A stretch of DNA of 40,575 bases from Candidatus Cloacimonadales bacterium (GCA_046482725.1 JAWOEN010000052.1:1-40575); one strand, 5' to 3'; shown: positions 2,401-28,667, counted from the stretch's first letter. The notes: generated from the sequence alone by a model not told the origin. Translations and numbers: made by a program.

Positions 2401-3114
2401 ATGAAAGCAATAATATTAGCAGCCGGAATGGGCAGCAGGTTGGCGACAGTCTCGGAAGGCATTCCCAAGAGCATGATCAGGATTTGCGAAAAATCGATCA
2501 TTCATCATCAGATCGAGAGTTGCCAGCAGGTGGGCATCGAGAATTTTGTGATAGTTTTGGGCTACAAATATGATTTGATGCGCCAGCATATTTTGGAAGT
2601 TTTATCCGAGCAGCAGGTTACATTTGTCGAAAATCCGATTTTTGCTAGTACCAACACTTTATACTCTTTGTGGTTGGCCCGAGAATATTTTGATGATGAC
2701 TTTATCTATTTCAATGCGGATGTACTGTTTAAGAGTCATCTTTTGGAAAAGATAGCAGCGCCCTCGCAATATTCGCAATTGCTGCTCGAAACCAAATCTT
2801 GTCAGGAAGAAGAGGTGAAGATGGTGATCGATGAGCAAAATAGGATTTTGGAGATCTCAAAGCAATTGGAGATCGAGCGCTGTGCCGGAGAATTTATCGG
2901 CATCGGAAAATTTAATCATGATATTTTACCGCAATTTGCCAAGTATCTGCAATATGGAGTGGATAACGGGCAATCCAACAATTATTTTGAATACGCTGTG
3001 GGCTTGTTGGCGCAAGATGTGTTTTTGCAGGCAGTTCCCACAGATGATATCAAATGTATCGAGATAGATTTTCCCGAAGATCTGCAGCGGGCTATCGAGA
3101 TGTTCGAAAAGTGA
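2401..3114 (+). CDS. Nucleotidyltransferase (sugar-phosphate / phosphocholine cytidylyltransferase LicC-like, NTP_transferase fold)
   Basis: 237 aa. The N-terminal MKAIILAAGMGSRL...PK motif is the classic nucleotide-binding signature of this fold. The size matches LicC-like enzymes. The substrate cannot be assigned from sequence alone. Confidence 0.7.
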   Translation: MKAIILAAGMGSRLATVSEGIPKSMIRICEKSIIHHQIESCQQVGIENFVIVLGYKYDLMRQHILEVLSEQQVTFVENPIFASTNTLYSLWLAREYFDDDFIYFNADVLFKSHLLEKIAAPSQYSQLLLETKSCQEEEVKMVIDEQNRILEISKQLEIERCAGEFIGIGKFNHDILPQFAKYLQYGVDNGQSNNYFEYAVGLLAQDVFLQAVPTDDIKCIEIDFPEDLQRAIEMFEK

Positions 3115-3124
3115 TTTTTCTTTG

Positions 3125-4774
3125 ATGCGAAAATTATTGTTGGTCGGTATCAATTGCCGCTACACGCACAGTAATCTGGCGCTGCGCTATCTGCGCAATC
3201 ATTGGCAAAACCAGCAGGATCAGGTTGATTTGCTAGAGTTCAGTATCAATCAATCTGAGCGCGAGATTTTGCAAGCTATCTATCAGCAGCAACCTGATCT
3301 GCTGGCATTTTCGGTCTATATCTGGAACGCCGAGCTCATACAGCATCTCTTACCGGATCTGAAAAAGATCTTGCCCGCTGTAAAAATAATTTTGGGCGGG
3401 CCGGAGGTGAGCTTCGATTTCCAGCGCTGGCTGCGAGATTTTCCCGAGATTGATCAGATTATTTGCGGTAATGGCGAGGCTGCCAATCCGCTGAAGAGTA
3501 GCGAGCTTCAGCAATTGATCAAAGCTGATAATCTGCCATTTTCTTCAGTCGCATTTCCCTACTCTTCGCAAGATTTTCCACAGCTAGAGCATAAATATAT
3601 CTATTACGAAAGTAGTCGGGGCTGTCCTTTTCGGTGCAGCTATTGCCTTAGTTCACGGCGGGATCAGGTCTTGGATTTTCGAGATCTGAAGCAAGTATTA
3701 GCGGAGCTGCAATGGTTGGCAAAATTTCAGCCGCGGATCATCAAATTTGTCGATCGCACCTTCAATGCCCGCCCTTCGCATCATCGCCCTATTTGGCAAT
3801 TTCTGATCGCTGAGGCAGGAGTAACCAAATACCATTTCGAGCTGCATCCGGAATTTCTGACCGAGGAGGATTTTGAGATTTTGGCTACTGCTCCCCAAGA
3901 TCTATTTCAATTCGAGATCGGTATCCAATCAACCAATCCGCGCACTATTGCCGCGATCGATCGGCAGGATAATTGGCAAAAATCGCGAGCCAATATCAGC
4001 AGATTGCAGCAGATGGGAAAATTTCATCTGCACACAGATCTGATCGTGGGCTTACCTCATGAGGATTTAGCCAGTTTGGCCCGGAGCTTTGATGAAATTA
4101 TCAGTTTGGCAGCGCAGCATTTTCAGATGGGATTTTTGAAAGTGTTGCCCGGCACCAAAATGGCCGAGCAGGTAGAAGAGTATGAGATAATGCATACAGC
4201 CGCGCCGCCTTATGAAATCCTCAGCAATCGCTGGCTAGATTTTCAGCAGATCAATCAGCTTAAGGTTGTAGAGCAACTCTTGGATAAATTTTATGGCTCG
4301 CAAAAATTTCAGTTCACGATTGGTTATTGTCAGCAATTGTGGCAATCGCCTTTCCGCTTTTATTGGCAATTTGCCGAGTGGATTTTGCAGCAAGAGCAAG
4401 ATCTCAGGATCAAGGATTGGAGTAAGAATTGTGGCAGTTTGTTGGAATTTTTATTAGAAAATCATCCTAGTAAAAGAGAACTGTTTATCGATCTTCTGCG
4501 TTATGATTGGTGTAATAATTTTAGAGGTAAATTTCCTGCAATAATTGACAGCGCTGCCAACCGAGCTCGGCAAAAGCGAGCTCAGGAATATTTGAAAAGC
4601 TACAATCAAAGCGGAATCATCAAAATTGGCGAGCAAGAATTTTCGATGAAAGAGCTAAAGAATGCCAACTATTTCCAGGCAGAGAGCAAGGAATTTTGCA
4701 CTTTGCTAAATCAGAAGCCAGAAGAGATAGTTATGTTTTTGCAACAGAAACCATTCTTTATCTGGCAAGAGTAA
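3125..4774 (+). CDS. B12-binding-domain radical SAM protein with a DUF4080-type C-terminal extension
   Basis: The ORF track starts at TTG 3122; ATG at 3125 is the more likely start. It has an N-terminal LLVGINCRYTHSNLALRYL Rossmann-like B12-binding pattern. The CPFRCSYC motif is the CxxxCxxC radical-SAM cluster motif. A long C-terminal region follows, as in DUF4080 proteins (from memory). Confidence 0.7.
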   Translation: MRKLLLVGINCRYTHSNLALRYLRNHWQNQQDQVDLLEFSINQSEREILQAIYQQQPDLLAFSVYIWNAELIQHLLPDLKKILPAVKIILGGPEVSFDFQRWLRDFPEIDQIICGNGEAANPLKSSELQQLIKADNLPFSSVAFPYSSQDFPQLEHKYIYYESSRGCPFRCSYCLSSRRDQVLDFRDLKQVLAELQWLAKFQPRIIKFVDRTFNARPSHHRPIWQFLIAEAGVTKYHFELHPEFLTEEDFEILATAPQDLFQFEIGIQSTNPRTIAAIDRQDNWQKSRANISRLQQMGKFHLHTDLIVGLPHEDLASLARSFDEIISLAAQHFQMGFLKVLPGTKMAEQVEEYEIMHTAAPPYEILSNRWLDFQQINQLKVVEQLLDKFYGSQKFQFTIGYCQQLWQSPFRFYWQFAEWILQQEQDLRIKDWSKNCGSLLEFLLENHPSKRELFIDLLRYDWCNNFRGKFPAIIDSAANRARQKRAQEYLKSYNQSGIIKIGEQEFSMKELKNANYFQAESKEFCTLLNQKPEEIVMFLQQKPFFIWQE

Positions 4775-4794
4775 AGCCTGCACAAATTTTTTTA

Positions 4795-5511
4795 CTAATC
4801 TGACAAAAAATATCTGACTGTGGAGACGACTCGTACCTTTTTGATATGTTGAGCGGAAGCATCACGATCGTTGATAGAAAATTGACCTTGGGTAGCATTT
4901 TTGATTTTACCCAATTTACTGTTGGAATCTTTGGCAAATTTTTCCGCAGCTTGGCGAGCGTTTTTGGTCGCCTCTTCGATCATATCGGGTTTGATCGAGT
5001 TTAATTCTGTGAAGAGATATTGAGTCCGATATTGATAATCTTGCCCGGAAAGTGCGATGCCTTGCTTGCCCAATTCCACGATCTGACGTGAACTTGCTTG
5101 CACCAAATTTACCTGCTGAGAATAAACGGTGATCACACCGGTCGCTGTAAAACGATATTTGGCATTGCCTCCATCTCCATGAGATTGGGCTTGTTTATCG
5201 AAAATCGAGGGTTGCGATATGGTGATCTCATCTTCAGCAAAGCCATTGTCCTGCAAAAATTCCACGATGAGATTTGTCTTCTTTGCCAAGCTGGCATAAA
5301 GCTGGCTCAGATCGTTGCCTGCTTCATCAAATTTGATAGGCCAAATCGCTACATTGGCTTCCACTTCGCGCTCAGCCAATCCTTTCACGGTGACAATTCT
5401 ATCCATACTCTTCACTTTCAACGCTGCCTTAGAAATCAGAGCTGCGAATATTACCAACCCCAAAAAAATGAAAACTCCCAAAATGGCAGCTGCTCTGTTT
5501 TTTTCTAGCAT
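4795..5511 (-). CDS. SIMPL (DUF541, YggE-like) domain protein, N-terminally membrane anchored
   Basis: 238 aa with an N-terminal hydrophobic anchor, then RIVTVKGLAEREVEANVAIWPIKF and a C-terminal ...VRVVSTVRYFL pattern typical of SIMPL family proteins. An AGGAGG ribosome-binding site lies upstream of the ATG at 5511. Confidence 0.6.
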   Translation of the reverse strand: MLEKNRAAAILGVFIFLGLVIFAALISKAALKVKSMDRIVTVKGLAEREVEANVAIWPIKFDEAGNDLSQLYASLAKKTNLIVEFLQDNGFAEDEITISQPSIFDKQAQSHGDGGNAKYRFTATGVITVYSQQVNLVQASSRQIVELGKQGIALSGQDYQYRTQYLFTELNSIKPDMIEEATKNARQAAEKFAKDSNSKLGKIKNATQGQFSINDRDASAQHIKKVRVVSTVRYFLSD

Positions 5512-5529
5512 AATAACCTCCTGCTTTGC

Positions 5530-6009
5530 TTAGCTTTCCATCTGCGCTGACTGCTGGCGATACTTTTTCTGCAATCCCATAAAAAAATTACGCAAAACCT
5601 GATCCTGACAAATCCGATATTGGCGAGATCCTTTCTTGCGAAAGAAAGCGCTGAGCTCCGATTTTCCCAATTTGAAATTGGCCAAATCCAACACTTGCAA
5701 AACATCTTCTGCTTTCATATCAAGCGCAATCTTCAGCTTCTTAAAGATCAGATTGTTGGTAATCCGATCTTCCGGCTGAGGTTGTTCACCTTCGCGCTTG
5801 CCTCGGTTTTTGTTGATCAAGCCGTTGAGAAATGTTGCCAACATCCGATCACTGAGCTCTTGAAATTCCGGATCATCCTCTCGCTTCAGCCAATCGCTTA
5901 CTTCTGCTCTCTCCACTTTCTGCTCTGCTGCTGCAAAGATCTCTATCATCTGCTCATCGCTATAATCAAAGATATAGCGTACGCGTCTTAGTACATCATT
6001 ATTTTGCAT
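5530..6009 (-). CDS. DUF1456 family protein (YehS-like)
   Basis: 159 aa. The N-terminus MQNNDVLRRVRYIFDYSD closely resembles the duplicated DUF1456 repeat of E. coli YehS (from memory). A GAGGAG ribosome-binding site lies upstream. Confidence 0.6.
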   Translation of the reverse strand: MQNNDVLRRVRYIFDYSDEQMIEIFAAAEQKVERAEVSDWLKREDDPEFQELSDRMLATFLNGLINKNRGKREGEQPQPEDRITNNLIFKKLKIALDMKAEDVLQVLDLANFKLGKSELSAFFRKKGSRQYRICQDQVLRNFFMGLQKKYRQQSAQMES

Positions 6010-6061
6010 CTTTCTCCTCGTTTGTTGTCATTATCATCACATATAAAAATATCTGGCTTCT

Positions 6062-6098
6062 ATAAAAATGTACCCAACCGAAGTTTCGATCAGGTACA
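6062..6098 (-). terminator. Rho-independent terminator candidate ending the poly-gamma-glutamate operon
   Basis: On the minus strand, a TGTACC...GGTACA stem (plus-strand 6069-6074 / 6093-6098) is followed by TTTTTAT. It lies 25 nt after the stop of the 6123..7145 gene. Confidence 0.5.
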
Positions 6099-6122
6099 GA
6101 GTATTTCTAAAATTTTGGGCTA

Positions 6123-7145
6123 TTAAAGCTCAAATTCTAAGCCTAAACCAACCTGGTAAGCATCATAAGTTTTCTCATCTGCCACTTGTTGATAGATCGA
6201 ATCGGTAATCCGTTTCTGATATTTTCCCAAAAGCTTGATCTGCATATTTTCCAAAAGTGGATAACGCAGATAGCTGCTGAGCGAATAGCGCTCTGCTTCC
6301 CGCTGATAGTGGTAGGTATCGTCAGGATAGTCACTTTGGAAATAGCGCTTTTCATATAGCAAAAACGCGTAGAATCTCAGATCTTTTTCGGCAAGTTGAA
6401 GCAATGATGGAACGATCAAAGTAAAACGAAATTTATTGGAATCGTAGCTATTATCTTTGATCACACCACTATAATCCAAGCCTTCAAAAGCTTCTTCAGC
6501 TTGGGCAACAGAATATTTGTAACCGTAACCAAATCTGGTTTCAAAGTTCTGCCAACGCCAGATTAGACGCACTGCATTTTCCAGATCATCAGCATCATAT
6601 TCGACAAAATATTCGTTGTAATAGCGTTGAGTAAAATCCAGCTCGTAACGCAAGCTGATCTGTTTATTCAGGTTATGATTCAGCACAGCACCAAAATTGT
6701 TTTTGGAATATGTATATTGATGGCGCTGCTCGTCCCAGACACTGGTATAATTGTGCACATAAATCTCGGGATGATAGCTATAAGCGAGGCGCAGATCCCA
6801 ATAGCGATTGAAAAACTGTCTGCTTGAAAAACTCAAACTCACCTGATTGAAAACATCATTTTCGGTATAAAGATCATAATCTAGTGAAAGATTTGTGATA
6901 TTGGTATGACCCAAGATTTTTCTTCTAGCTTGCAGATTGATAGCGATACTATTGACAAAGTCATCAGCGGTCTTCACATCATAATAGCTACCGATCTCTC
7001 CATCCAGATAGCGTTGATACTGATCGTCGGATAAGCTGAGTAAATTACTGCTATAGACGCCTTCTACCGAGATCGATGGCTGCAGGTTCCAAGCTGCTAA
7101 TAATAGATAGCAACTACTGAAAATAAGCGTGATTATTTTTTTCAT
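6123..7145 (-). CDS. Predicted outer-membrane beta-barrel protein, last gene of the pgs operon
   Basis: 340 aa with signal peptide MKKIITLIFSSCYLLLAAW. The body is Tyr/aromatic-rich with alternating hydrophobic strand-like segments (e.g. LRLAYSY, ISLRYELDF, TRFGYGYKY, YQVGLGLEFEL). Its start overlaps the upstream gene stop as ATGA (7142-7145). I recognise no named family. Confidence 0.5.
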   Translation of the reverse strand: MKKIITLIFSSCYLLLAAWNLQPSISVEGVYSSNLLSLSDDQYQRYLDGEIGSYYDVKTADDFVNSIAINLQARRKILGHTNITNLSLDYDLYTENDVFNQVSLSFSSRQFFNRYWDLRLAYSYHPEIYVHNYTSVWDEQRHQYTYSKNNFGAVLNHNLNKQISLRYELDFTQRYYNEYFVEYDADDLENAVRLIWRWQNFETRFGYGYKYSVAQAEEAFEGLDYSGVIKDNSYDSNKFRFTLIVPSLLQLAEKDLRFYAFLLYEKRYFQSDYPDDTYHYQREAERYSLSSYLRYPLLENMQIKLLGKYQKRITDSIYQQVADEKTYDAYQVGLGLEFEL

Positions 7146-8056
7146 TCTTCCTCTATATCAATGGATGATTTACTGATAAAAAACCGAAAAATCACATCTA
7201 AATTGCTGTCACGATTTTCTACCGATAGATTATGAACACCTCTGGGTAATTTCAAAATATTGGAATCACCGGTCGAGAGCATTTTTTCTTCTTCATTGCG
7301 TAAATATGAGCTTGGGGATTTATGGGCAATCTCTTGATAATCTCCCAGTAAATTACCATTGCTATAGACTCGGTAGCCATACTGTTTGGAATTTACATAA
7401 TTGCGGGAAAAAACAAAGCGGCTCATGATTTTCAGCACTATAGGCCCTTCCAAAGTCAATTTGATAGAGCCATCTTTATCTTCGTAGTAGGTGTAGGTTT
7501 TTTTGCGTAACACCATCGTACGTTCATTGCCATATTCTTGAGGCGAATATTTGATGTAATCAATTACCCGATGCTCTGAAATAACGTTATTGGCAGAGAT
7601 CTTCACCAAGATATTGTAGCTGGAAGTATTGCTAACGCTGACGATAGTATTATCCGAGGGGATCTTTTTGACGAAAGTATTGTAAGCAGATATTTCGTCT
7701 CCATTCAAGCCACGCGTAATCCTGCTGGCTTTAGCAGATCTCTCTACTTTGTATTGGCGTCCATCGATATCTACCAAATAGTTATAATCAATATCTTTAT
7801 TGCCATTCATAATCAGGCGAGTGTAAATCTGCAAGCTATCTACCTCAAAAGTTTTCACCTGAATACTGGCTCCCGGTTGCAGTTGATAATAATTTATAAT
7901 CTTATTACTGCGTCGATTGAGTAGAGGAAAAACTTCCTTATCTGTTTGCAGCTCGATGTGCGAAGCAGATATAGAGCTGGATATAGCCAGAATCAGCAAC
8001 AGAAACAAAACTATTTTAGTAGGCCGAGTTGCCAGATCAAGCAGTTGATTCTTCAT
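7142..8056 (-). CDS. Secreted or periplasmic protein of unknown function in the pgs operon
   Basis: The track ORF extends to 8113 and would overlap the upstream gene by 38 nt. ATG at 8056 (MKNQLLDLATRPTKIVLFLLLILAISSSISA|S) gives a clean signal peptide and has AGGA about 9 nt upstream. ATG 8065 is an alternative start. I recognise no family. Confidence 0.5.
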   Translation of the reverse strand: MKNQLLDLATRPTKIVLFLLLILAISSSISASHIELQTDKEVFPLLNRRSNKIINYYQLQPGASIQVKTFEVDSLQIYTRLIMNGNKDIDYNYLVDIDGRQYKVERSAKASRITRGLNGDEISAYNTFVKKIPSDNTIVSVSNTSSYNILVKISANNVISEHRVIDYIKYSPQEYGNERTMVLRKKTYTYYEDKDGSIKLTLEGPIVLKIMSRFVFSRNYVNSKQYGYRVYSNGNLLGDYQEIAHKSPSSYLRNEEEKMLSTGDSNILKLPRGVHNLSVENRDSNLDVIFRFFISKSSIDIEEE

Positions 8057-8075
8057 AAAAACCATCCTAATTTGT

Positions 8076-9182
8076 TTAAACGTTAATCTCATCTTTTTTG
8101 ATTTTGAGCTCATGATGATCGAAAAAGATAACCATGGCGATCAGAATCAAGAGAATTACCAAAGAAATGATTGTGATTGAGATACTATATTTTTCTGCTT
8201 CAAACACCTTACCCATCCCAGCTTGCGGTAAAGGTTCCGGAGCTACCGGCATTTCATATTGATTAGAAATACCTACGATGTCAAGCAGGTGCAGCAGCTT
8301 AACACCACGTTCGGCGAAGAGAAACATCGTACCCTTGGTTGGGATATTTTTCAATTTTAGATAGCGATGCAAGCCGGGTGAAACCATTTGTCCATTCAAG
8401 GTGGTTCCCAGACTGGATAATCCACCTCCGATATTTACATAGAGTTTATACTCGTCGCCTGCGGCCAATTCGTCTAGGATAAACATCTTTTGTGCAATAT
8501 TATCTTCCAGGCTACTGCCATTAATCAGAGTAACATTGTTGCGCTCGATAGCATCCAAGATCAGCTCGCGTCCGCGTAGACTGAGGCCACGGCCCAAATC
8601 TCTGCCACCGCCGATAGAAGCTGCACTACTGTGATAGGGAAATACACCGCTGTCATTCAGCACTTTTTCCATATCCAGCCAAGTAAAATCGGGATCGGTA
8701 GCGCCGAACATACTGGCGCCCACAGATGAGACGATTTTTAGATCCAAATCCATAACTTTGGCAGCACTAAAAAGTGCCAGATTCATACCGGGAAAAGAGC
8801 CTGTGTAGCTGACCGCGACTTTATCTCCTGCTTTCAGTTCAGCATTTTTGAAAAAATCTACAACTACAGCAGCCATATTGGGATTGAGTGAGGTCAGTTT
8901 GGAAGTAAGATTGCCACGATCTGTAATAATCACAGATTCGCGATCTCCGACCAAAGCTGTTTTATTGGGGTCATTCAGATTGTCGATATAAGCTCCGCTG
9001 TCGATACGATTCTGCTTCAGTACCTTCGCGGCGTTTTGCATCTCTTGCGCTGCTTTCATCTTCAATTCGAAATGATCTTCTTTTACATAGTTGGTACTGC
9101 CTTCTACCCAGATAAAGAGTAGCAAGGCGATGAAAAATAGTAATATCAAACTGAGTTTGGATTTTGCACTTGGTATAAACAT
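8076..9182 (-). CDS. Poly-gamma-glutamate system protein (the family found in place of PgsA/CapA in some pgsBC loci; assignment from memory)
   Basis: 368 aa with N- and C-terminal transmembrane segments, located immediately downstream of pgsC (11-nt gap, GGGAGAG ribosome-binding site). Composition and position match what I recall of the 'poly-gamma-glutamate system protein' family. This needs an HMM check. Confidence 0.5.
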   Translation of the reverse strand: MFIPSAKSKLSLILLFFIALLLFIWVEGSTNYVKEDHFELKMKAAQEMQNAAKVLKQNRIDSGAYIDNLNDPNKTALVGDRESVIITDRGNLTSKLTSLNPNMAAVVVDFFKNAELKAGDKVAVSYTGSFPGMNLALFSAAKVMDLDLKIVSSVGASMFGATDPDFTWLDMEKVLNDSGVFPYHSSAASIGGGRDLGRGLSLRGRELILDAIERNNVTLINGSSLEDNIAQKMFILDELAAGDEYKLYVNIGGGLSSLGTTLNGQMVSPGLHRYLKLKNIPTKGTMFLFAERGVKLLHLLDIVGISNQYEMPVAPEPLPQAGMGKVFEAEKYSISITIISLVILLILIAMVIFFDHHELKIKKDEINV

Positions 9183-9193
9183 TTATCTCTCCC

Positions 9194-9643
9194 TTATCCT
9201 ATTATTTCTCCGCCAAAAATCAAGATCAAGATGAACCTGACCAAAACAGCTGCGATAGTCATGACCGAAAGCGTTTTGATGATTCCCTGTTTTTCCATGG
9301 CGTTGGCGATAAGACCCGGAATGATAAAACCAATCACATCGACTGAGTAATTTGAGGGTACAGTGGAAAAGATTCCATAAGTATCGGCATACCAGCCCAA
9401 AATGAAACCCAAAAGCACGGTTATCACCATTCTTCTGCGTCCATAGATGAACATTACTCTGCCCAATAATTTCACTATTCCAAAAACCACAAAACTTATT
9501 GTTAGTGTGGCAAATATTGTAAGCGGCTGATGCAAATACATTGCGATATAGCCAGAAACTACAATACCACCAGCTGCTGCTCCAAAAGTCTCTAAGAAAA
9601 AGAGACTAATTATTACACCTAAACCTATTGCTACTTCAAACAT
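9194..9643 (-). CDS. pgsC: Poly-gamma-glutamate biosynthesis membrane protein PgsC/CapC
   Basis: 149 aa, very hydrophobic. It aligns by eye along its length with B. subtilis PgsC (...GIVPAGLVVPGYL... / ...GIIVPGLIAN...): here GGIVVSGYIAMYL and GFIIPGLIANAMEKQG. It overlaps the pgsB stop by 8 nt. Confidence 0.85.
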   Translation of the reverse strand: MFEVAIGLGVIISLFFLETFGAAAGGIVVSGYIAMYLHQPLTIFATLTISFVVFGIVKLLGRVMFIYGRRRMVITVLLGFILGWYADTYGIFSTVPSNYSVDVIGFIIPGLIANAMEKQGIIKTLSVMTIAAVLVRFILILIFGGEIIG

Positions 9644-10805
9644 TTTTTCCGTTCCTCTCCCTAAAGTATTCTACGATTATACCGCCATTTCCACCAATAT
9701 TTCCTACTCCAAATAATAGAACTTCCTGCGCTGGCAATTTGCTGACTTCGGCGATCAATTCTTCTCCACTCACCCATCCACAATCGTGTACTTCTGCTTT
9801 GGAAATACCGTGTGAGATGGCATAAGAATGCATAGATTGAGTTTGCTGCCCGATCAGGAAAAGCTCATCGTGCTCAAATTCGCAGAGCATGTCGATCAGC
9901 TGCTTGGAACGATAGATTCTATCTTCGCGAGTATTTAGAACCAATGAAATGTTGTCGATATGTGAGTGGATTTTTTTTACATAATTAATTAAAAACTGGG
10001 TTGATTCCGGATCATTTGCCGCAAAAGAGTGAACGAAAAATATTTTCATCCCATTCCGCTTCACTTCAAAGATCTCGGCAGCTCCGATATCGGGTTTGGC
10101 TTTGTACATCTCTTGCAAAGCAACATCCCGCTCTACCTGACAATGTTCACAAACATCCAAACTGACTGCCACATTGTCTTTGTGCTCGATGTGTCGAAAT
10201 CCGCGCATCATCTCATCAGAGATTTTGTTACTATCAGAGTAAATCAATTTCGTACCCATCTTGTGGGCTTGTTTGCTTATCAAGGGAAACATTCTCCACT
10301 CTGCCGTATAAGCGATGCCATTACTGGGCAGTGAATTACACAGCGAGAGAGTACAGTTTCTCAGGCCGGGACCCATCACATCCAGATGATCCAAGCGACT
10401 GTTGGTGACTACTCCGATATCAGAATGCACCATCTCCTGCTCGGTAACCCACTGATATTCGGGAGTTACAGCCATGCATTCCAACACCAAAATATCGATG
10501 TCACGTTTAGCCACAAATTTTATGATCTTCAATTGCTCTTTGATGTTAGCTTCATAATGACGCACAATCGGGGTCTCAGAGCCATCTTCAAAAATTATTG
10601 CCGGGGCTGAACCTGTTGTTTTTGCCATCACTTTTTTGTTGCCGCCGCGTAAACCGGCTGCGATGAGCCTCACCACACTAGATTTTCCTCTAGTTCCATT
10701 TACATGAATGATTAGCGGAATCTTTTTCCGCCAAAATTGGTGATTATGAAATTCGATAATCCATAATACAATTAATAAAACAAAACCAAAAATTAATATA
10801 TACAT
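9636..10805 (-). CDS. pgsB: Poly-gamma-glutamate synthase PgsB/CapB (Mur-ligase-like amide ligase)
   Basis: 389 aa with an N-terminal transmembrane segment. Motifs are HVNGTRGKSS (P-loop), LVLECMAV.PEYQ, VVTN.RLDHLDVMGP, and FAANDPEST near the C-terminal third. All parallel B. subtilis PgsB (INGIRGKST, SECMAVNPDYQ, NVLEDHMDVMGP, FAANDASST) from memory. Confidence 0.9.
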   Translation of the reverse strand: MYILIFGFVLLIVLWIIEFHNHQFWRKKIPLIIHVNGTRGKSSVVRLIAAGLRGGNKKVMAKTTGSAPAIIFEDGSETPIVRHYEANIKEQLKIIKFVAKRDIDILVLECMAVTPEYQWVTEQEMVHSDIGVVTNSRLDHLDVMGPGLRNCTLSLCNSLPSNGIAYTAEWRMFPLISKQAHKMGTKLIYSDSNKISDEMMRGFRHIEHKDNVAVSLDVCEHCQVERDVALQEMYKAKPDIGAAEIFEVKRNGMKIFFVHSFAANDPESTQFLINYVKKIHSHIDNISLVLNTREDRIYRSKQLIDMLCEFEHDELFLIGQQTQSMHSYAISHGISKAEVHDCGWVSGEELIAEVSKLPAQEVLLFGVGNIGGNGGIIVEYFRERNGKNV

Positions 10806-10843
10806 TTTACCTCATAATAGATTGAGCTTTGCTAAATTTTATT

Positions 10844-10891
10844 AAAAAAAACCAAGCTTCTTCAGGAGCACCCAAAGCGGATACTCCTGAA
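10844..10891 (-). terminator. Rho-independent terminator candidate after the C25 peptidase gene, separating it from pgsB
   Basis: An 8-bp TTCAGGAG / CTCCTGAA stem (10861-10868 / 10884-10891). On the minus strand a T8 run (plus-strand A-run 10844-10851) follows about 9 nt after the stem. Confidence 0.55.
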
Positions 10892-10950
10892 ATAGCTAGC
10901 AGACTTTTTTTTACAAAACTCAAGTTTAACCAATATTTTCGATCATTAAC

Positions 10951-13900
10951 TTATTTCAGAAGCAGACATTTGCCACTGGAGATATTAGACTTTCCATCAG
11001 ATAGCTGATAGAAATAGACACCAGATGAAACAACATTGCCCTGATGATCATCACCGGCCCAAACTACAGAATGAGTACCGGCCGGCAAAGTTTCTGCCAC
11101 CAAAGTTTTCACTTTCTGTCCTTTGGTATTATAGATCTGCAATTCTGTATACTGCTCAGCTTGGCTGGTAGAGAAGCTGATAGTAGTGGTAGGATTGAAA
11201 GGATTGGGATAATTTCCCAAAAGCTGCAATTGCGGCTGAATCATCTCGTTTTCATCTGTACCTACATAATCATCAGGTGAATTTGTCGTAAACTTGATCG
11301 CCAAGCCAGCTGATAACGGTACTGCACTCGCAGCATAAAAATCTGAGTAGGAGTAGCAGATACCATCAGTTTGATGTCCATTTTCGATACCAACAGTAGA
11401 ATAATTATCATCTTCATCCGGATTATCTACAGTATGATAATTGAATTGGATAATACCGTCACCGGTAGCTGTTTGATGCATCGCAGGATCATAAAGCACA
11501 ACTTCAAATTTCTCGATTGAGCTGTCGTTGTGTCTGTTGACAGCGCCATTCCATTGAATCACAAATTTTCCCTCTTCCGGGAAATAATCGTAACCCAATC
11601 TGATGTGATAGTGCATGCCGGAACCATCATCAAAGGGAATACCGATCAAATCATCCCAATATGGTGCTACCATGGCATAAGGTCCCAAAGCTGCCGGAAT
11701 ATTCCAGTTGGTAAAATCATCCACATCTGTTTCATCAAAAGCTAACCAACCATTGGAGCTGACCGAGATCAGATCATGCGCTTCTCCATAGTATTGGAAG
11801 GTGAAAGGCAAATCTACTACTTCAGTTTGATCATCAGCCAGAGGAATAATTGTACCGTTGCCACCATCTTCCGGATCAACCACATGCCATTCATACTCGG
11901 GTGCTTCCTCATAGCCGACATCTGTATTGTCATAAGCATAATAGCCATAATTATCCGGTCCGGTCGGATCACTACTCTGCACTGTTCCGATCTGGGTGGT
12001 ATAGATGGCAGAGGTAGTTTGCTCTTCTGCATCTACAAAATCCAAATTGATCGAAACCAATCTTCCCACAAATGCATCAGCAGCCACTGAAATTCCCAGC
12101 TCAGCTGTGGCAGTTTCTCCTACCAAGAGATCACCGAATTCCAGCACTGTGTCAGAAACCAAGATCGCATCACTCATCTCGCTAGGTATAGCTGTCAGGT
12201 TTTCCACATCTATGCTTCCGATATTTTTGACAGTCAGATTTACTATAAGATCATCACCCGGATCCAAGACTCCATCCTCGGGAATCTCAAGTTCAGTGAT
12301 TTCAAAAAGAATACTATTATTGAGCAAGGCAAATTTAGCGATCGAGCCATCGGAAATTTCCAAGCTAAAAGCTAGGCTTTCTCCATTGGGAGATTCGGGA
12401 GCAATCGTCACAACGAAACTGGCATTAGCAGAGGCATTAGCTGCAATATCACCAAAGTCGGCAGTGCCGCTCTCGATTGTTACCATCTCATTATTGCTAA
12501 TCAGGTCGGCCGCAACAGCAGAGGCAGTTTCAGAGCCAAAATTGGTCAATTCCAGATCGATCGTTACTTCTGCTCCAGCAATCACTTCACTGCTTTGCAC
12601 TGAGCTTATTCCCAGATCAACCGAATGGCTGCTAACCTCAACAGTTTGGATATAAGGAATATGATTCGGTTTGGTCAGTGTCACTTCGATTTGTCCAGGT
12701 TCTTGTGGCTCAAAATATAAGGTGATCGCACCGTTTTCCATTGTGCCGCGAGCGATGATTTCGCCGTCTTTGACAGCGGAAACCAGAGCTCCGTCTGCCT
12801 CAGCAGCAACAATGTCCAGATAATTTGTGCCAGTATTGATCTCTGAGACAAATTCAGCAACTAAGGCATTGGGTACTCGGCTACGCATCATCAGCGAGGG
12901 GTCACCCAGGATATTGTAAACATGGAAATAAAATTCTACAGCTTCTTCCTGACCTACAGCTCTTTCGCGTGGGAAATTATCATAAAGCTCATATTTGGAG
13001 CGGAGTAAGGCGGTACTGAAAATAAAATTATCCTCATCCAAAAAACCGTGATAAAAGCCTGAAAAGAGCGAATTGTTGTATCTGGTGTTGGTGTGAAGAT
13101 CAGAAGGACCCACAAAGATCACCGCTCCCTTGGGAATACTAGGTGTTCCGGCTCGAACAAATTTCTCTCCAAAACTAGGATCGACAGCCTGATTGGCAAA
13201 ATCTCCGGTATTACAAACAAAAGAAGTTACTACCGGCAACATATAGCCATTATTTAATTCATCGATATGTTGTCTTTTAAATTCCGGATAGTGCCAACCA
13301 TTGGCATTGCCCCAACCGCGATAAGTTATCAGGTTCACACCACTGTTGATGCTATTGATAATATCGGTAGAGCCGGGATAGAGGGGTGGATAGTAAAATT
13401 CATCTACATTGGCATATCCGTAATAATCCAATTTCTCTTCCAACCATTTACTGGTATTGACCGGAGTAGTTGGCATAGGCGGGCTATCAGAATAATTTCC
13501 AGCCACCAAAGTGGCAGATTCTAGCCAGCTGGAATCTTCCATGTAAGGAGTTTTTTCATAGAATATGACTTTATTGATGATTGTCATCAGCTCCATTTCG
13601 CTATCGATAGAAAATCTTCCAGCCAAAATTTCGGGAAAATAATCATCACCCTCGATCATAGTGAAAGGCAAGTCTGTAACATTGTTGGCATCGCTAATAT
13701 AGAATGATGGTAATTCGAAAGAGCCGTTGACATCACCTACCAAAAGCAGGTAATCAGGTCTGGTTTCAAGGTTGTTGTATCTATCAGCGATAAAAGCTCT
13801 GATGTTCTCACTGCTGCCGCCAGCTTCTGTAATAGAAAAGATATCTGTCTCGATAGCGCTGGCTTGTTTCCAGTCGATAAAGGTCTGCATCGTGTTGAAC

Positions 13901-14424
13901 AGATTTTCCTTGGCAATAATCAGCATCCGAGTGGGAGCAATCTCGGTCATATAGAGATAAGATTCGGCGAAATTGCCGGTAACTGAACGGTAAACAGGCA
14001 GAAAAGCCGGAGAAACTTTTTGCGGAATCTCTACTCGCTTGGTTGGATTAACCGAGAATTCCAGACTGGTAAGCACAGCTCTACCTTCAGCTCTTTCGGG
14101 CTGCAGATTTAGCTCGACTGTATGAGCATAGAGTTCTCGCATCACAAAGCTGTCAGTAATTTTCACACTTGCTTGGTTGCGTTCTGTTTCATTACCGATA
14201 AAATTATCGTCAGCATCAAAAATAGCATAATTGCTGCTGATGATTTCCACTTCCACTGCGGTAGCGGGTATTGCCAAGACAGTCTCTACGGTAATATCTT
14301 GGGGGGCCAGATCATTATTCTGGTAGCTCACCACAAGATTTCCTCTCTCCTGCTGATAGCTAAAATCAGCCAGCAAACTGCTAGCGAAAATCAACAGCAA
14401 AATAAATATCATATGTTTTTTCAT
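10951..14424 (-). CDS. Peptidase C25 (gingipain/PorU-like) family protein with CARDB-like Ig domains and a T9SS C-terminal domain
   Basis: 1157 aa with a signal peptide. DYLLLVGDV...P, ITYRGWGNANGW and SFVCNTGDF...GDPSL align by eye with the RgpB region NYTGHGSETAW...DVACVNGDF...GDPSL. There are two ~95-aa segments resembling CARDB domains. The C-terminus is LLGNYPNPFNPTTTISF...SGVYFYQL...KCLLLK. Confidence 0.8.
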   Translation of the reverse strand: MKKHMIFILLLIFASSLLADFSYQQERGNLVVSYQNNDLAPQDITVETVLAIPATAVEVEIISSNYAIFDADDNFIGNETERNQASVKITDSFVMRELYAHTVELNLQPERAEGRAVLTSLEFSVNPTKRVEIPQKVSPAFLPVYRSVTGNFAESYLYMTEIAPTRMLIIAKENLFNTMQTFIDWKQASAIETDIFSITEAGGSSENIRAFIADRYNNLETRPDYLLLVGDVNGSFELPSFYISDANNVTDLPFTMIEGDDYFPEILAGRFSIDSEMELMTIINKVIFYEKTPYMEDSSWLESATLVAGNYSDSPPMPTTPVNTSKWLEEKLDYYGYANVDEFYYPPLYPGSTDIINSINSGVNLITYRGWGNANGWHYPEFKRQHIDELNNGYMLPVVTSFVCNTGDFANQAVDPSFGEKFVRAGTPSIPKGAVIFVGPSDLHTNTRYNNSLFSGFYHGFLDEDNFIFSTALLRSKYELYDNFPRERAVGQEEAVEFYFHVYNILGDPSLMMRSRVPNALVAEFVSEINTGTNYLDIVAAEADGALVSAVKDGEIIARGTMENGAITLYFEPQEPGQIEVTLTKPNHIPYIQTVEVSSHSVDLGISSVQSSEVIAGAEVTIDLELTNFGSETASAVAADLISNNEMVTIESGTADFGDIAANASANASFVVTIAPESPNGESLAFSLEISDGSIAKFALLNNSILFEITELEIPEDGVLDPGDDLIVNLTVKNIGSIDVENLTAIPSEMSDAILVSDTVLEFGDLLVGETATAELGISVAADAFVGRLVSINLDFVDAEEQTTSAIYTTQIGTVQSSDPTGPDNYGYYAYDNTDVGYEEAPEYEWHVVDPEDGGNGTIIPLADDQTEVVDLPFTFQYYGEAHDLISVSSNGWLAFDETDVDDFTNWNIPAALGPYAMVAPYWDDLIGIPFDDGSGMHYHIRLGYDYFPEEGKFVIQWNGAVNRHNDSSIEKFEVVLYDPAMHQTATGDGIIQFNYHTVDNPDEDDNYSTVGIENGHQTDGICYSYSDFYAASAVPLSAGLAIKFTTNSPDDYVGTDENEMIQPQLQLLGNYPNPFNPTTTISFSTSQAEQYTELQIYNTKGQKVKTLVAETLPAGTHSVVWAGDDHQGNVVSSGVYFYQLSDGKSNISSGKCLLLK

Positions 14425-14434
14425 CTATCCTCCA

Positions 14435-16765
14435 TTACTTTAGCAAGATCATCTTGCGCGAAGCTTGATAATCTGCAGTTGATAATTTATAAAAATATAC
14501 ACCACTTGCGACACTGCGATTGGCTTGATCTCTGCCGTCCCAGACTACGCTATTGCTAGCAGAAAGCTGAGTCGATTGCAGATCAAAACTTTTTATTTTC
14601 TGACCCCGAACATTATAAATCTCCAACTGCGCCTCAGCGTAATCTTGCTCTGCCAAATTAAAGCGGATCGTAGTTTCAGGATTAAAAGGGTTGGGGAAAT
14701 TTCCCCTCAGCTCTGTCTTGAGCTCGGGGATATTTTCTTCATTGGCATTGGACGCAAGTGAAGAAACTATCTTCAGATTGTCGATCCACCAACCGGGGTC
14801 TCTCTGAGTATCATCACTGACAAAGCGAAAACGCAGATGCAAATATGTATCTACATAATCTGCCAAAGAGAGCACAACATTGTCATTTGTCGGGCTCATC
14901 ACATCTTGCCAACCTTTACTAATGCCGGAATATTCAGCGATGGTCTGCCAGGTAGTGCCATTGGTACTCACTTCCACTTTCCCAAAATCTACGTCATGTT
15001 CGGTTCGATATTTATGATCAAAAGTCAAGACCACATCGTCAGCTACGCCTTGCAAACTTATATAGCCGCTGTACTGTGCAGAATCATCCATATTATTGGG
15101 ATAAAAATCGTGCATGCTGTTTTGGAAGAAATTGCGATGTACTACCAAACTCTGTGTATTCGAAACAGGATCTATCTCGGCAGCCCAGCTATATTCTGTC
15201 TCCCAATCAGGAATGCCAGCATCAAAATTATCTGCAAAAAGCACAACTTCCGGGGCAAGCTCTAGCTCCAGATCTGCATCTTGCAAATGCTCTGCCTGAT
15301 ATTGATAAGGTACAAAACCGTCAATTTTCACAATAAATTGCTGCTCTCCGGCAAAAGTATCCAGACTGAAATCTCCTCCGGAAAAGGGGATAACTTGATG
15401 ATATTCACCTAGGATTTCTACTACACCATCCAGCTCTGTGTTGGTGGAAACGTTTATATTAACCGGCTGCAAAGGCTGCAATTCCACATCTCTAATTGTC
15501 CAGGATGAGTTATTGACGGTAACACTCTGCAGATGATCTTGATAGCCTGCTTTACGCACTCGCAGGGTATATTGTCCCGGATTGAGTTGGCGCCAATATC
15601 TGCCAAAAGTATCGTCAGTCAGGCGCGGCGTGAAAAATGAAGCGTGATTTTCTTCGATAATAACTTCGGCAACGATTGGGGCGCCCGTTTCGGCGTCGGT
15701 AACGTGTCCGGTCAGCATGGCACCACTATCGGCCTGATATCCTAAAATGCGGCTGAATAACCAAAAAGCTCCACTCAGATTTCGTTCCACAGTATCCAGC
15801 ATGATAGCTTCGTTGGGCTGTAAATTCTGGGTACCACATTCGATCAAGAGCTGGGTTGTACCATGTTCTTGGTAAAACCACTCATGAGCAGAGCCTTTTC
15901 TACCGCGTGAGGGTGAAGGCTCGTAAAATCCGCTGCCTGTCTCTTTCTGTATGCGGCTAGCAACCTCTTCTCCAATATATTGATTATGCTCAAAATCGGG
16001 ACTTCGTTTGAGATCGTCCCATTCAAATGAGTAAAAAATTTGCTCTGATAAATTTCCTGTGCGGGAAGAGTGCCAAGCTACGGAATAGATAAAATGCTGC
16101 TCTGCTGCCAGGTTGGTAATAGCTTGGATGCCGCCTTCGGATATCGGGGCCGGACCGCGATAATAATCATACAATTCGTCGCCATCAGGGCAATACAATG
16201 TGTCTCCATGCACCCAATTAAATGAGAAATTTCTATTCATATCCACACCGTCGATATCTCTACCGACTCCCAGCTCTACATCCCACTCACCGTTTTCATT
16301 ATTATCACGCATATTCTTACGCCAGGAGACATGCTCTGTATCCATCACCACACCCAAGCCTTCCGGATTGTAGGTGGGAACTATCCAAATTTCCAGCTCA
16401 GAAATCCAGACATTGTAAGGAGTATAATTTCTGTTTTCCAAGATATCGTAGATCATATTCATGGTGATCTCTACGCCCAAAACTTCTTCAGCGTGAACTT
16501 GACCGATAAAAAGCAAAGCAGGTTCATCTTCATTTTCTTGCACATTATCGGAGATTTTCACACCCCAAATCGGCAACGGATCTTGAAAAGGAGAGCCCAA
16601 AGTTTCGCCGATCTGTTCCACTTTCATGATATCAGAATGCTGCTCTTGCAACTGAAATAATTCCTCTTCTATCTCTTCATTGGTATGATAGGCAGGATCC
16701 AGATAGAGCTGTGCCGAAAGTGCACCAACCAGCATCAACATTAAAAAGATTAGCATTTTTTTCAT
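14435..16765 (-). CDS. M14 family zinc carboxypeptidase with a CarboxypepD_reg-like domain and a T9SS C-terminal domain
   Basis: 776 aa with a signal peptide. M14 motifs present are GQVHAEEVLG (HxxE zinc ligands), NPEG, WRKN, VDMNRNF, VAWHS and LLIECG (catalytic Glu region). LTGHVTDAETGAPIVAEVII resembles the carboxypeptidase regulatory-like domain. The C-terminus is LRGNFPNPFNPETTIRF...SGVYFYKL...KMILLK. Its stop lies only 10 nt from the C25 ATG, which has a GGAGGA ribosome-binding site. Confidence 0.85.
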   Translation of the reverse strand: MKKMLIFLMLMLVGALSAQLYLDPAYHTNEEIEEELFQLQEQHSDIMKVEQIGETLGSPFQDPLPIWGVKISDNVQENEDEPALLFIGQVHAEEVLGVEITMNMIYDILENRNYTPYNVWISELEIWIVPTYNPEGLGVVMDTEHVSWRKNMRDNNENGEWDVELGVGRDIDGVDMNRNFSFNWVHGDTLYCPDGDELYDYYRGPAPISEGGIQAITNLAAEQHFIYSVAWHSSRTGNLSEQIFYSFEWDDLKRSPDFEHNQYIGEEVASRIQKETGSGFYEPSPSRGRKGSAHEWFYQEHGTTQLLIECGTQNLQPNEAIMLDTVERNLSGAFWLFSRILGYQADSGAMLTGHVTDAETGAPIVAEVIIEENHASFFTPRLTDDTFGRYWRQLNPGQYTLRVRKAGYQDHLQSVTVNNSSWTIRDVELQPLQPVNINVSTNTELDGVVEILGEYHQVIPFSGGDFSLDTFAGEQQFIVKIDGFVPYQYQAEHLQDADLELELAPEVVLFADNFDAGIPDWETEYSWAAEIDPVSNTQSLVVHRNFFQNSMHDFYPNNMDDSAQYSGYISLQGVADDVVLTFDHKYRTEHDVDFGKVEVSTNGTTWQTIAEYSGISKGWQDVMSPTNDNVVLSLADYVDTYLHLRFRFVSDDTQRDPGWWIDNLKIVSSLASNANEENIPELKTELRGNFPNPFNPETTIRFNLAEQDYAEAQLEIYNVRGQKIKSFDLQSTQLSASNSVVWDGRDQANRSVASGVYFYKLSTADYQASRKMILLK

Positions 16766-16792
16766 ATTTATCCTTCTTTAATAACAAAGAAA

Positions 16793-16820
16793 TTTTCCCC
16801 GACCCAAGGCCGGGGAAAAA
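16793..16820 (-). terminator. GC-rich hairpin (possible terminator or attenuator) between the repeat-protein gene and the M14 gene
   Basis: TTTTCCCCG acccaaggc CGGGGAAAA. On the minus strand it is followed by a T-rich tract (TTTCTTTGTTATT). Confidence 0.4.
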
Positions 16821-16825
16821 ATTAT

Positions 16826-19800: not shown

Positions 19801-19888
19801 TAGATTTGTCCCATTGCAACTGGGCATTCAGCCCTACCACTAATGACAACAGTAAAACTATGATAAATTTTCTCATTTTTCTCTCCAT
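16826..19888 (-). CDS. Large secreted repeat protein (about 15-16 tandem ~57-aa units, probable beta-propeller array) with a T9SS C-terminal domain
   Basis: 1020 aa with a signal peptide (an alternative start MRKF lies 4 codons in). The recurring unit is (V/I)W.D.R....DIY.Q.(V/L)D..GN.LW...G..(V/L). Examples are DIFAQKVDGDGNMLW, DIYAQKLDEDGNILW, DIYMQRIAANGDLLW, DIYGQLVDLDGNFLW and DIYGQIVTADGNILW. The C-terminus is LQQNYPNPFNPTTTIKF...SGVYFYQL...KMILMK. Confidence 0.75.
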   Translation of the reverse strand: MERKMRKFIIVLLLSLVVGLNAQLQWDKSMPVRQSVNVEWTRASATIPDGSVVYVWSDVRNGDRDIFAQKVDGDGNMLWGEESGNSAYPGMKEGVMINGEADRQEDLVIIETGDGQTVVAWVDYRNNPLEGDIYAQKLDEDGNILWDEAGVPLCLAEEEQISLNIVSNEAGGALIIWVDQRLQSAPDIYGTHILADGTIAEGWEADGNPIVVESNSQGQHTFWEDGQGGAVVAWADDRNPGGSDIYMQRIAANGDLLWAENGNLLVGAANAQSRPKVTRTSDDKFFFAWLDKRNEASGDIYGQLVDLDGNFLWEEELEILVGAGIQRNPRIQITSDDAAVVAWEDGAAEITYKNIHVQKINQAGEKLWAADGLPVVTAAYDQLNPRLDSDDAGGIWIIWDDSRDGGFPNVDIYAQQVNAAGEIQLETDGLQVCSQFSEQFSPLIKKSGDRIFTIWGNGNNEAGARTIQVQILDEAGEEILPENGKVVFGGMIGNASDYTILENGENPAVVWEDSRDSHLASQIYYQILNPDASFQLEKNGVSITEMTGSDQQELHATLVPGEDKIAVVWTEGRIDGVDYTYAQLLDFDGNRLWGEQGTVVCPNEVAQKNPKIAYVDGQYFISWQDTRANFDYGIYSQIFDENGEAQLDPAGVEIADLAGEDELMTVVDDYIIWKISVNWNTINIHVAKLDETGNMAAGWPEDGLEVVAAAGIQEKAQAIMTDEGLLLIWSDKRNDGIADIYGQIVTADGNILWEENGAPLVTSENDQIASNPVYNDGLFLAWDDLEGGIYDVYMQSYNSDASTNWAGNGIEIIAEEQNQKTPDLVSNGESFLVSWEHYFGGGEAGVAESDIHTQWVSAAGEKQWDNAGLALTTAIKDQKKPISAYAGDDSAFIIWEDARSSGKNDIYNIYAQKVAFEVLNSDENELNLQQSLQQNYPNPFNPTTTIKFSVATENQPTELTIYNLKGQKVKTLVDAELSAGRHTATWNGKDSNQKNVASGVYFYQLSNPQQTETRKMILMK

Positions 19889-21113: not shown

Positions 21114-21348
21114 AAATCTTCCTTGTAAAAATTCATTTTTTTTCTTACTTATATTTGTGCATTTTTTATTCCAAAATTGTGTGACGATAAGCATTCGTCA
21201 TTTTAACTGCTCGGTAATAGTTTATTATCTTTTTTCCAGAGAGCAAATTAAATTATTGAAATAAGATTTTTTTGGTGAAAACACTTTACGGAGAACAGGA
21301 AAATTTATTTATTGACTTTCAAAATGATAAACGACCCGGAGGATACTA

Positions 21349-23583: not shown

Positions 23584-23610
23584 CAAAGTGAAATCTGCCT
23601 AACCCGATCT

Positions 23611-23770: not shown

Positions 23771-23849
23771 CGGGATGTAGCCTAGTCCGGCTCAGGGCGC
23801 CGCATTTGGGATGCGGAGATCGGAGGTTCGAATCCTCTCATCCCGACCA
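23771..23849 (+). tRNA. tRNA-Pro (anticodon TGG), CCA encoded
   Basis: Hand-folded cloverleaf. Acceptor is CGGGATG/CATCCCG. The anticodon arm is CCGCA-TTTGGGA-TGCGG with G37. The T arm is GGAGG-TTCGAAT-CCTCT. The D loop is 11 nt. Confidence 0.85.
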
Positions 23850-23881
23850 GTTTTTCATAGACGTGACTTCAGATAGAATCT

Positions 23882-23957
23882 GGGCGTGTAGCTCAGTTGG
23901 GAGAGCGCCTGCCTTACAAGCAGGTGGTCGGGGGTTCAAGTCCCTCCGCGCCCACCA
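23882..23957 (+). tRNA. tRNA-Val (anticodon TAC), copy 1, CCA encoded
   Basis: GGGCGTGTAGCTCAGTTGGGAGAGCGCCTGCCTTACAAGCAGGTGGTCGGGGGTTCAAGTCCCTCCGCGCCCACCA. It forms a canonical cloverleaf with anticodon loop CTTACAA. Confidence 0.9.
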
Positions 23958-23989
23958 TTTTCTATCAAAAAACCTGAAATAAATTTTCA

Positions 23990-28557: not shown

Positions 28558-28574
28558 TTATTTTTATCATCTCT

Positions 28575-28667
<93 letters not shown>

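Follow-up and report, generated by a model that had tools for sequence, protein, structure and literature searches.

Described polyglutamate systems and the Cloacimonadales operon

Among described systems for poly-gamma-glutamate (PGA), the Bacillus PgsBCA(E) and CapBCADE systems offer the first comparison for the locus studied here, an operon of five tightly packed minus-strand open reading frames (ORFs) at positions 6123-10805 of a 40,575-bp contig of a metagenome-assembled Candidatus Cloacimonadales bacterium (JAWOEN010000052.1), which at its full length is called the window below. Both have PgsB and PgsC equivalogs, and in both pgsB and pgsC come first and are followed by a gene for a third protein, which is anchored in the membrane and has a large domain outside the cytoplasm. 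In contrast to Bacillus, the operon of the window lacks PgsA/CapA, PgsE/CapE and CapD/gamma-glutamyltransferase (GGT), and its third product, PgsW, has no detectable similarity to CapA. It also contains two extra genes, here called g4 and g5, which would serve a second membrane that Bacillus does not possess. The host itself is a diderm, since an Omp85/BamA protein with five POTRA domains is encoded at 21349-23583, so that the beta-barrel assembly machinery is present, and since type IX secretion cargo is encoded nearby. We consider it probable that the five genes constitute a PGA system fitted to a two-membrane envelope, with g4 and g5 as an export-or-anchor module; within this module, the role of a conduit is favoured. 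The features of the locus are:

9636-10805, minus strand: pgsB, 389 aa, TIGR04012, Mur_ligase_M
9194-9643, minus strand: pgsC, 149 aa, TIGR04011, Caps_synth_CapC
8076-9182, minus strand: pgsW, 368 aa, TIGR04332
7142-8056, minus strand: g4, 304 aa, signal peptide, all-beta model, without a named family
6123-7145, minus strand: g5, 340 aa, signal peptide, 14-strand barrel model
10836-10900, minus strand: intrinsic terminator belonging to the C25 peptidase gene upstream, marks where the operon is bounded at its 5' side (RNA fold)
6055-6105, minus strand: intrinsic terminator closing the operon (RNA fold and pattern scan)

Two diderm groups are already linked to PGA. A polyglutamate cluster of Cloacimonadota was published in ISME J in 2026 as a set of three genes that is nearly universal in the phylum (PMC13082233). 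According to this account, pgsB and pgsC occur in roughly 85-99% of Cloacimonadota genomes, varying with clade and annotation tool, an extracellular matrix stained by 4',6-diamidino-2-phenylindole (DAPI) surrounds enriched cells, and the polymer was proposed to mediate syntrophic aggregation in anaerobic digesters (PMC13082233). Its text contains none of the words "outer membrane", "export", "secret" and "porin". The second group are the Fusobacteriota, whose loci (e.g. in Cetobacterium somerae) share the pgsB-pgsC-pgsW core in a diderm host, but lack g4 and g5 and encode an M14-like 'succinylglutamate desuccinylase' just upstream of pgsB; Cetobacterium has ggt as well. These M14-like and ggt genes (4779-5912 and 1023-2726 in locus L163, 1852-2523 in locus L082) possibly encode PGA-processing enzymes. 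The statement of a preliminary description of the window that PGA is understood only in monoderms consequently needs updating, since the Cloacimonadota cluster is published and pgsBCW is annotated in cultured Fusobacteriota. In the searchable literature, we found no outer-membrane component for PGA described in diderms. To our knowledge, the route by which PGA exits the cell is unsettled even in Bacillus.

The synthase-dependent exopolysaccharide systems PgaABCD, BcsABC, Alg8/44-AlgK-AlgE and PelA-G are comparable in another way, as they combine an inner-membrane synthase, a periplasmic adaptor and a dedicated outer-membrane barrel. The PgaA and PelB barrels are among the top PDB matches of g5, and tetratricopeptide repeats (TPR) stand in front of some g5 relatives. 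However, the polymer expected here is a polyamide made by a Mur-ligase-type PgsB together with PgsC and not by a family-2 glycosyltransferase, the putative adaptor g4 is modelled as an all-beta tandem beta-sandwich instead of TPR, and no sequence family is held in common. The likeness is one of layout and not of ancestry of the parts. Taken together, the three-gene core, the polymer pathway and the logic of synthase, adaptor and barrel are already known, whereas the two-gene distal module with its folds, its conservation across phyla, its fusion architectures and a third gene that is not CapA-like are new.

The arrangement of the five genes was recovered as first described, including all coordinates. 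The ORFs of pgsB and pgsC overlap by 8 nt (9636-9643), gaps of 11 nt and 19 nt separate pgsC from pgsW and pgsW from g4, and g4 and g5 overlap by an ATGA at 7142-7145. The start of g4 is an ATG at 8056 with AGGA 8 nt upstream, and the same 304-aa call was made by NCBI (P0020). Another NCBI protein, P0031, is likewise identical to a product of the window. Both flanking hairpins with T-runs fold strongly as RNA: that at 10836-10900 reaches -28.5 kcal/mol (z = -5.6) with its stem directly abutting U8, and that at 6055-6105, with UUUUUAU behind it, reaches -17.1 kcal/mol (z = -4.9). In a pattern scan of 5400-11400, the hairpin at 6098-6069 was the sole long-stem (13-pair) terminator-like site. Inside the operon, where an internal terminator or promoter would split the unit, nothing convincing was detected; terminator-like sites were weak in the pattern scan and not in excess of shuffled sequence (7 versus 4.4 +/- 2.0), and the same holds for promoter-like sites in a consensus scan (15 versus 15.9 +/- 3.8). 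One internal promoter candidate at 7161-7132 (10 of 12 consensus matches) was dropped because the start codon of g5 already precedes the -10 element of this candidate and because promoter-like sites were not above the shuffles. One transcript covering all five genes is the simplest reading of this layout, and its promoter would sit in the 145-nt intergenic region 10806-10950.

The assignment of the first two genes is firm. PgsB matches the equivalog TIGR04012 over its full length (387 bits, cut-off 222.7), carries a Mur_ligase_M domain (Pfam) and has one N-terminal membrane anchor in the form of a hydrophobic segment at residues 1-22. PgsC matches TIGR04011 (123 bits, cut-off 96.45) as well as the Pfam family Caps_synth_CapC (PF14102, 2e-32) and has at least three hydrophobic segments. 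Both proteins, recognised as PgsB and PgsC from the outset, score far above the cut-offs that NCBIfam has curated for these families. On the basis of family membership and of the Bacillus work on glutamate polymerisation (summarised in PMC5751247), PgsB as a membrane-anchored ATP-dependent amide ligase and PgsC as a polytopic protein are predicted to form the inner-membrane synthase. For the components that seemed to be missing, a Pfam scan took in 27 ORFs of the window, namely those of at least 150 aa plus PgsC; the ORFs 12005-12655, 23098-23586 and 30872-31468, which overlap annotated genes on the opposite strand, and 19313-19843, which is nested in the gene at 16826-19888, were left out. 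Among these 27 ORFs, no Pfam match was obtained for PGA_cap (CapA/PgsA, PF09587) or gamma-glutamyltransferase (CapD/GGT). No racemase is present within the window, and the intergenic gaps of the operon leave no room for a small PgsE-like gene. The reported lack of PgsA/CapA, PgsE and CapD/GGT was thus confirmed at the level of the window.

The third gene deserves separate consideration. Its 368-aa product had been taken for a bitopic member of the 'poly-gamma-glutamate system protein' family. The family is correct (TIGR04332, 301 bits, cut-off 100), and the RefSeq symbol of TIGR04332 proteins, e.g. in Cetobacterium somerae, is pgsW. The topology had to be revised: hydrophobic segments at residues 1-33 and 329-361 enclose a domain of about 295 aa, hence the protein is two-pass and not strictly bitopic. 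Lys residues precede the first helix, and the enclosed domain should face the periplasm. No Pfam family was found for PgsW, its sequence profile gave nothing significant against solved structures (best match ClpP, E = 0.13), and a consensus of weak Pfam matches over 16 PgsW sequences yielded nothing coherent. In the literature on TIGR04332, pgsW, PgsF and "poly-gamma-glutamate system protein", no functional study was found. We also considered PgsW as a divergent CapA/PgsA and rejected this, given an hhalign probability of 0.13% against CapA of Bacillus thuringiensis (from locus L164) and no PGA_cap match. The third gene of the Cloacimonadota cluster is termed CapA-like in the published account (PMC13082233), while our profile comparison finds no CapA similarity. 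PgsW thus takes the position of PgsA/CapA as third membrane component, without homology to it.

Across 99 diverse PgsW homologues including those of Fusobacteriota, the residues K41, D71, K95, N102, D120, S153, S157, D170, E172, D195, R205, N250, G252-G254 (forming a GGG motif) and S257 are at least 93% conserved. Conservation of this kind is seen more typically in enzymes or specific binding sites than in passive scaffolds, and it hints at catalysis. One might therefore ask if the operon makes a free PGA capsule at all. Its product could instead be another gamma-linked compound, or a periplasmic or envelope-attached one, which PgsW, g4 and g5 fix to the envelope. The invariant Ser, Lys, Asp and Glu residues in the periplasmic domain of PgsW, suggestive of an enzyme, would fit this, as would the lack of racemase, CapD and GGT genes in the window and the fact that in Cloacimonadota the polymer is known from DAPI staining alone (PMC13082233). 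However, PgsB and PgsC lie well above cut-offs that were curated for equivalogs. Furthermore, the same pgsB-pgsC-pgsW trio is found in Fusobacteriota, for which PGA production is said to have been shown by Candela and co-workers in 2009. We thus regard a product other than free PGA as distinctly improbable.

The predicted barrel g5, its proposed partner g4 and their fusions

The 340-aa product of g5 was initially suspected to be an outer-membrane barrel from its Tyr-rich alternating strands, and structure prediction agrees. An AlphaFold2 model built from a 19-sequence alignment (pLDDT 76.9, pTM 0.75) consists of an N-terminal signal helix and 14 long strands; both a signal peptide and amphipathic strands in even number are thus predicted. 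One face of the strands is hydrophobic and aromatic, while the other, which lines the lumen, is polar with a net charge of +6. The mature protein (321 residues) contains 37 Tyr and has a net charge of -14 and an isoelectric point of 4.9. It ends in ...GLGLEFEL, i.e. in Leu with F at position -3, and homologues end in L, K or F. Conserved motifs lie mostly in predicted extracellular loops.

When the model was compared with the PDB by Foldseek, 296 matches at E <= 0.001 were obtained, essentially all of them outer-membrane barrels. The top match is the 14-stranded OmpG (E = 2e-9, TM 0.65-0.68 normalised to OmpG, identity 8-10%); the PgaA barrel 4y25, CymA, FadL and PelBC are among the top matches too, and chitoporin and OccK also belong to the closest ones. 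Matches to such diverse barrels establish only the fold of g5. OmpG- and CymA-type monomeric channels have the same number of strands and are its best structural matches; in contrast to them, g5 is longer, has long conserved loops and belongs to an operon for polymer synthesis, not to a setting of sugar uptake. At the sequence level, g5 itself has no Pfam or NCBIfam family, and its profile gave nothing significant against solved structures. Distant relatives match the generic Pfam barrels OMP_b-brl (11 of 57 sequences, best 7e-8), Porin_4 and BBP2_2. A full search with a hidden Markov model against 1.84 billion representatives placed 473 clusters (50% identity) in the g5 family at E <= 0.001, and 267 at E <= 1e-10.

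The second distal gene, g4, encodes a protein with a signal peptide that has an Ala-X-Ala-type cleavage site and no lipobox. It had first been described as a signal-peptide protein of about 305 aa without recognised family; at 304 aa it indeed has no Pfam or NCBIfam match. Hits to GLPGLI (E = 0.007) and GH43 (E = 0.03) were discarded as they are far below the cut-offs. Its profile matched nothing significantly among solved structures (best E = 0.019, to a 71-residue protein), and NCBIfam, Pfam and structure-profile searches revealed no similarity to known solute-binding protein families. The AlphaFold2 model (pLDDT 72, pTM 0.46) is all-beta with two blocks and weakly resembles tandem CBM-type jelly rolls (Foldseek, TM about 0.2-0.27). 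According to this model, g4 would consist of two beta-sandwich domains. We propose it as a periplasmic partner of the g5 barrel.

Domain fusions connect the two families. Many g5 relatives of about 460-530 aa bear an N-terminal domain of about 150 aa, and hhalign matches a profile of this barrel-fused domain with g4 residues 169-282 at a probability of 95.6% (E = 1.2e-8). Since the same profile matches both halves of g4 proteins outside Cloacimonadota, g4 is best explained as a tandem duplication of the domain. Within g4 of the window itself the repeat is weak (hhalign E = 0.006, probability 6%), and the N-terminal half matches weakly. Some barrels carry two g4-type domains (P0195, P0289), and loci in which a g4-type domain is already fused to the barrel keep a separate g4. 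The N-terminus of outer-membrane barrels is periplasmic by established topology, which puts the g4 domain of the fusions next to the barrel mouth that faces the periplasm. In two further relatives, TPR precede the barrel (P0233, P0290), which is the architecture of PgaA, BcsC and PelB. Finally, P0259 (807 aa) and P0283 (910 aa) are single ORFs that run from PgsW through a g4-type domain to the barrel, with an internal segment resembling a signal peptide. They may be real fusions or read-through or frameshift artefacts of high-GC assemblies, and either way demonstrate adjacency in yet other lineages. The view that the distal genes belong with the synthase gains further backing from all three types of composite ORF.

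What the barrel does is a separate matter. One rival to export is a surface anchor: g4 and g5 would hold PGA as a capsule, and the polymer would cross the outer membrane elsewhere. A precedent exists in the Wzi barrel, which anchors group 1 capsules. The concentration of conserved g5 motifs in predicted extracellular loops would suit a binding surface or a plug, the resemblance of g4 to jelly rolls of carbohydrate-binding type would suit polymer binding, and Cloacimonadota cells are reported to be embedded in a matrix (PMC13082233). However, the conserved cassette encodes no other candidate for an outer-membrane conduit, the g4-type domains are fused at the N-terminal and thus periplasmic end of the barrel, and the TPR-barrel relatives mimic export porins. 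In addition, the open 14-strand channels OmpG and CymA as well as secretins are near the top of the Foldseek matches, even though this concerns the fold only. On balance an anchor without passage seems unlikely to us, if still the strongest rival, and a conduit remains the favoured function of the g4-g5 module.

Conservation of gene order across phyla and neighbouring genes

Another reading takes g4 and g5 for general envelope proteins that merely share the transcript of the synthase and play no part in the polymer pathway. To score synteny, local profiles of PgsW, g4 and g5 were used, with PgsB and PgsC of the window as phmmer queries. A pgsW-seeded scan of one genome per GTDB species delivered 76 loci with pgsC followed by TIGR04332. 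The order pgsB-pgsC-pgsW-g4-g5 is present in 54 of the 57 loci with at least 2.3 kb downstream of pgsW. These derive from Cloacimonadota, within which g5 identity falls to about 32%, and from Eisenbacteria (L070, L078, L079), Zixibacteria (L072, L080), Ignavibacteriales (L074) and unclassified genomes. The three exceptions are two Auribacterota loci with g4 and no adjacent barrel and one Fusobacteriaceae locus with neither g4 nor g5. Two loci binned as Armatimonadota (L022, L025) encode a PgsW about 60% identical to that of the window, surrounded by all the neighbours typical of Cloacimonadota; probably these are contigs of Cloacimonadota that were mis-binned, and a locus from a 'Hyphomicrobiales' metagenome-assembled genome (L081) may be mis-binned as well.

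A similar picture emerged from the opposite end of the operon. A g5-seeded scan, in which an alignment of the most divergent members was run against metagenome contigs, gave 80 loci. Where at least 4.6 kb were available upstream, pgsB-pgsC-pgsW-g4 precede the barrel in order in 26 of 29. L154 departs from this by having pgsB-pgsC-pgsW directly followed by g5, without g4. In L119, the barrel adjoins, downstream, a large secreted PGA_cap (CapA-type) protein (4410-7529), and a divergently oriented pgsB-pgsC-pgsW is found about 5 kb away. The third exception, L115, was represented by its close relative L114, where one unassigned 556-aa ORF lies between a large secreted PGA_cap protein (119-2002) and the barrel downstream of it. 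Of the PGA_cap (PF09587) proteins of L114 and L119, one additionally bears a CBM together with a type IX sorting tail, and PKD domains are present in the other; in these lineages, CapA-like domains may therefore function extracellularly. On a further locus, situated on a 2-Mb contig, a C25 peptidase gene, pgsB, pgsC, pgsW, g4, g5 and a gene for an LVIVD-repeat protein follow each other.

Co-occurrence of both distal genes with pgsBC beyond this genome, on which the preliminary description made its reading depend, is therefore found in both scans and in several diderm phyla. The one point in favour of mere co-transcription is that neither g4 nor g5 has a characterised homologue. Against it, order and adjacency are kept at 20-35% identity and across several phyla, fused ORFs spanning PgsW to g5 exist, and even orphan barrels sit near CapA-domain proteins. 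We thus disfavour it as the least probable of all explanations considered.

The genes around the operon behave differently. Directly upstream of pgsB, three large proteins with type IX C-terminal sorting domains are encoded on the minus strand (10951-19888), namely a 1157-aa C25 peptidase of the gingipain family, an M14 zinc carboxypeptidase (776 aa) and a third protein of 1020 aa. Of the 35 genome loci for which 7 kb or more of upstream DNA was available, 21, all Cloacimonadota, have the C25 gene immediately upstream of pgsB, and 11 have the M14 gene; the taxonomically unassigned metagenome locus L165 has the C25 gene there too, and none of the six loci from other phyla does. We considered these cargo peptidases as part of the PGA system and rejected the idea; because the linkage is confined to Cloacimonadota, it is treated as lineage synteny.

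The peptidases also bear on a further reading of the distal genes, according to which g5 would be a porin that takes up glutamate, peptides or PGA fragments, with g4 as its periplasmic binding protein, and the two would feed or recycle substrate of the synthase. The substrate-specific channels CymA, chitoporin, FadL and OccK are among the closest structural matches of g5, and type IX-secreted C25 and M14 peptidases are encoded directly upstream in many Cloacimonadota. Yet g4 and g5 stay with pgsBCW in other phyla, where the peptidases do not follow. Moreover, the conserved cassette contains no inner-membrane transporter, and g4 does not resemble known solute-binding proteins. Uptake is thus very improbable in our estimation, and we retain export or anchoring as the probable role of the module.

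Several other neighbours were noted. LVIVD-repeat proteins adjoin the g5 barrel in distant lineages (9113-10126 in L165, 5267-7684 in L114, 9036-11513 in L119), in two cases fused to an FGE-sulfatase domain, and a copy is encoded in the window at 20079-21194, about 9 kb upstream of the operon. Just past the operon terminator, two minus-strand genes at 4795-6009 code for a 159-aa DUF1456 protein with two repeats (E = 1e-52) and for a 238-aa protein of the SIMPL/DUF541 type; in none of the other loci inspected does g5 precede these two. About 1.3 kb past the 3' end of the operon, an NTP-transferase gene and a B12-binding radical SAM/DUF4080 gene are located on the plus strand (2401-4774). The same pair is found at 11487-13888 of the Cloacimonadota locus L001, about 2.4 kb from a g5 of 33% identity, so synteny reaches beyond the operon even near a divergent barrel. 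Finally, two tRNA clusters are present, one at 23771-24065 with Pro(tgg) and two Val(tac) genes of equal Rfam scores, the other at 28472-28758 with Ser(tga), Ser(gct) and Gln(ttg).

A possible route of polyglutamate to the cell surface

The mode of action we envision starts with PgsB and PgsC, which would polymerise glutamate at the inner membrane. On the periplasmic face, where its position places it, PgsW would take over or process the nascent chain. The soluble periplasmic g4 would dock on the periplasmic side of g5, bridging the gap or capping the barrel, as the fusions suggest. The barrel g5 would then let the linear polyanion leave the periplasm, or hold the polymer at the surface. The envelope-spanning secretion system first proposed for this locus is upheld by these data in so far as synteny, fusions and the barrel model tie the distal genes to the system, while passage through the barrel is a step that we still infer.

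Several points weigh against this model. The predicted 14-strand barrel is smaller than the solved polysaccharide porins, which have 16-18 strands. It is acidic overall with a lumen face that is only slightly basic, and a strongly electropositive pore as in AlgE is not evident from the predicted strands. The protein ends in Leu and not in the usual aromatic residue of the beta-signal. For g4, model quality is only moderate and the fold matches are weak, and the export or anchoring role of both proteins is a prediction. Moreover, the motifs used for the genome scan came from Cloacimonadota PgsW, which biases the taxonomic sampling. Finally, Fusobacteriota have pgsBCW without g4 and g5 and Auribacterota have g4 without an adjacent g5, hence the module is not required by every diderm with PgsW.

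A more specific proposal can be put forward tentatively, as we judge its chances to be slightly short of even: g4 and g5 might form an outer-membrane translocon, the first one dedicated to a poly-amino-acid exopolymer, with PgsW and its conserved Ser, Lys and Asp residues as a periplasmic enzyme or coupling factor that passes the chain from the synthase on to this translocon. Irrespective of this, two new families become available for annotation, i.e. a barrel family of at least 473 clusters at 50% identity and a beta-sandwich domain (about 120 aa) found on its own, in tandem copies or joined to the barrel. With PGA being a polymer of industry, a module that exports it from Gram-negative hosts could matter for production strains. 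For two-membrane bacteria, g4 and g5 represent the best candidate for the route of polyglutamate to the cell surface. If the proposal is true, a 14-strand barrel and a beta-sandwich adaptor evolved independently of the TPR-porin polysaccharide systems, and the five-gene cassette would be a general diderm answer to PGA export in Cloacimonadota, Zixibacteria, Eisenbacteria, Ignavibacteria and related lineages.

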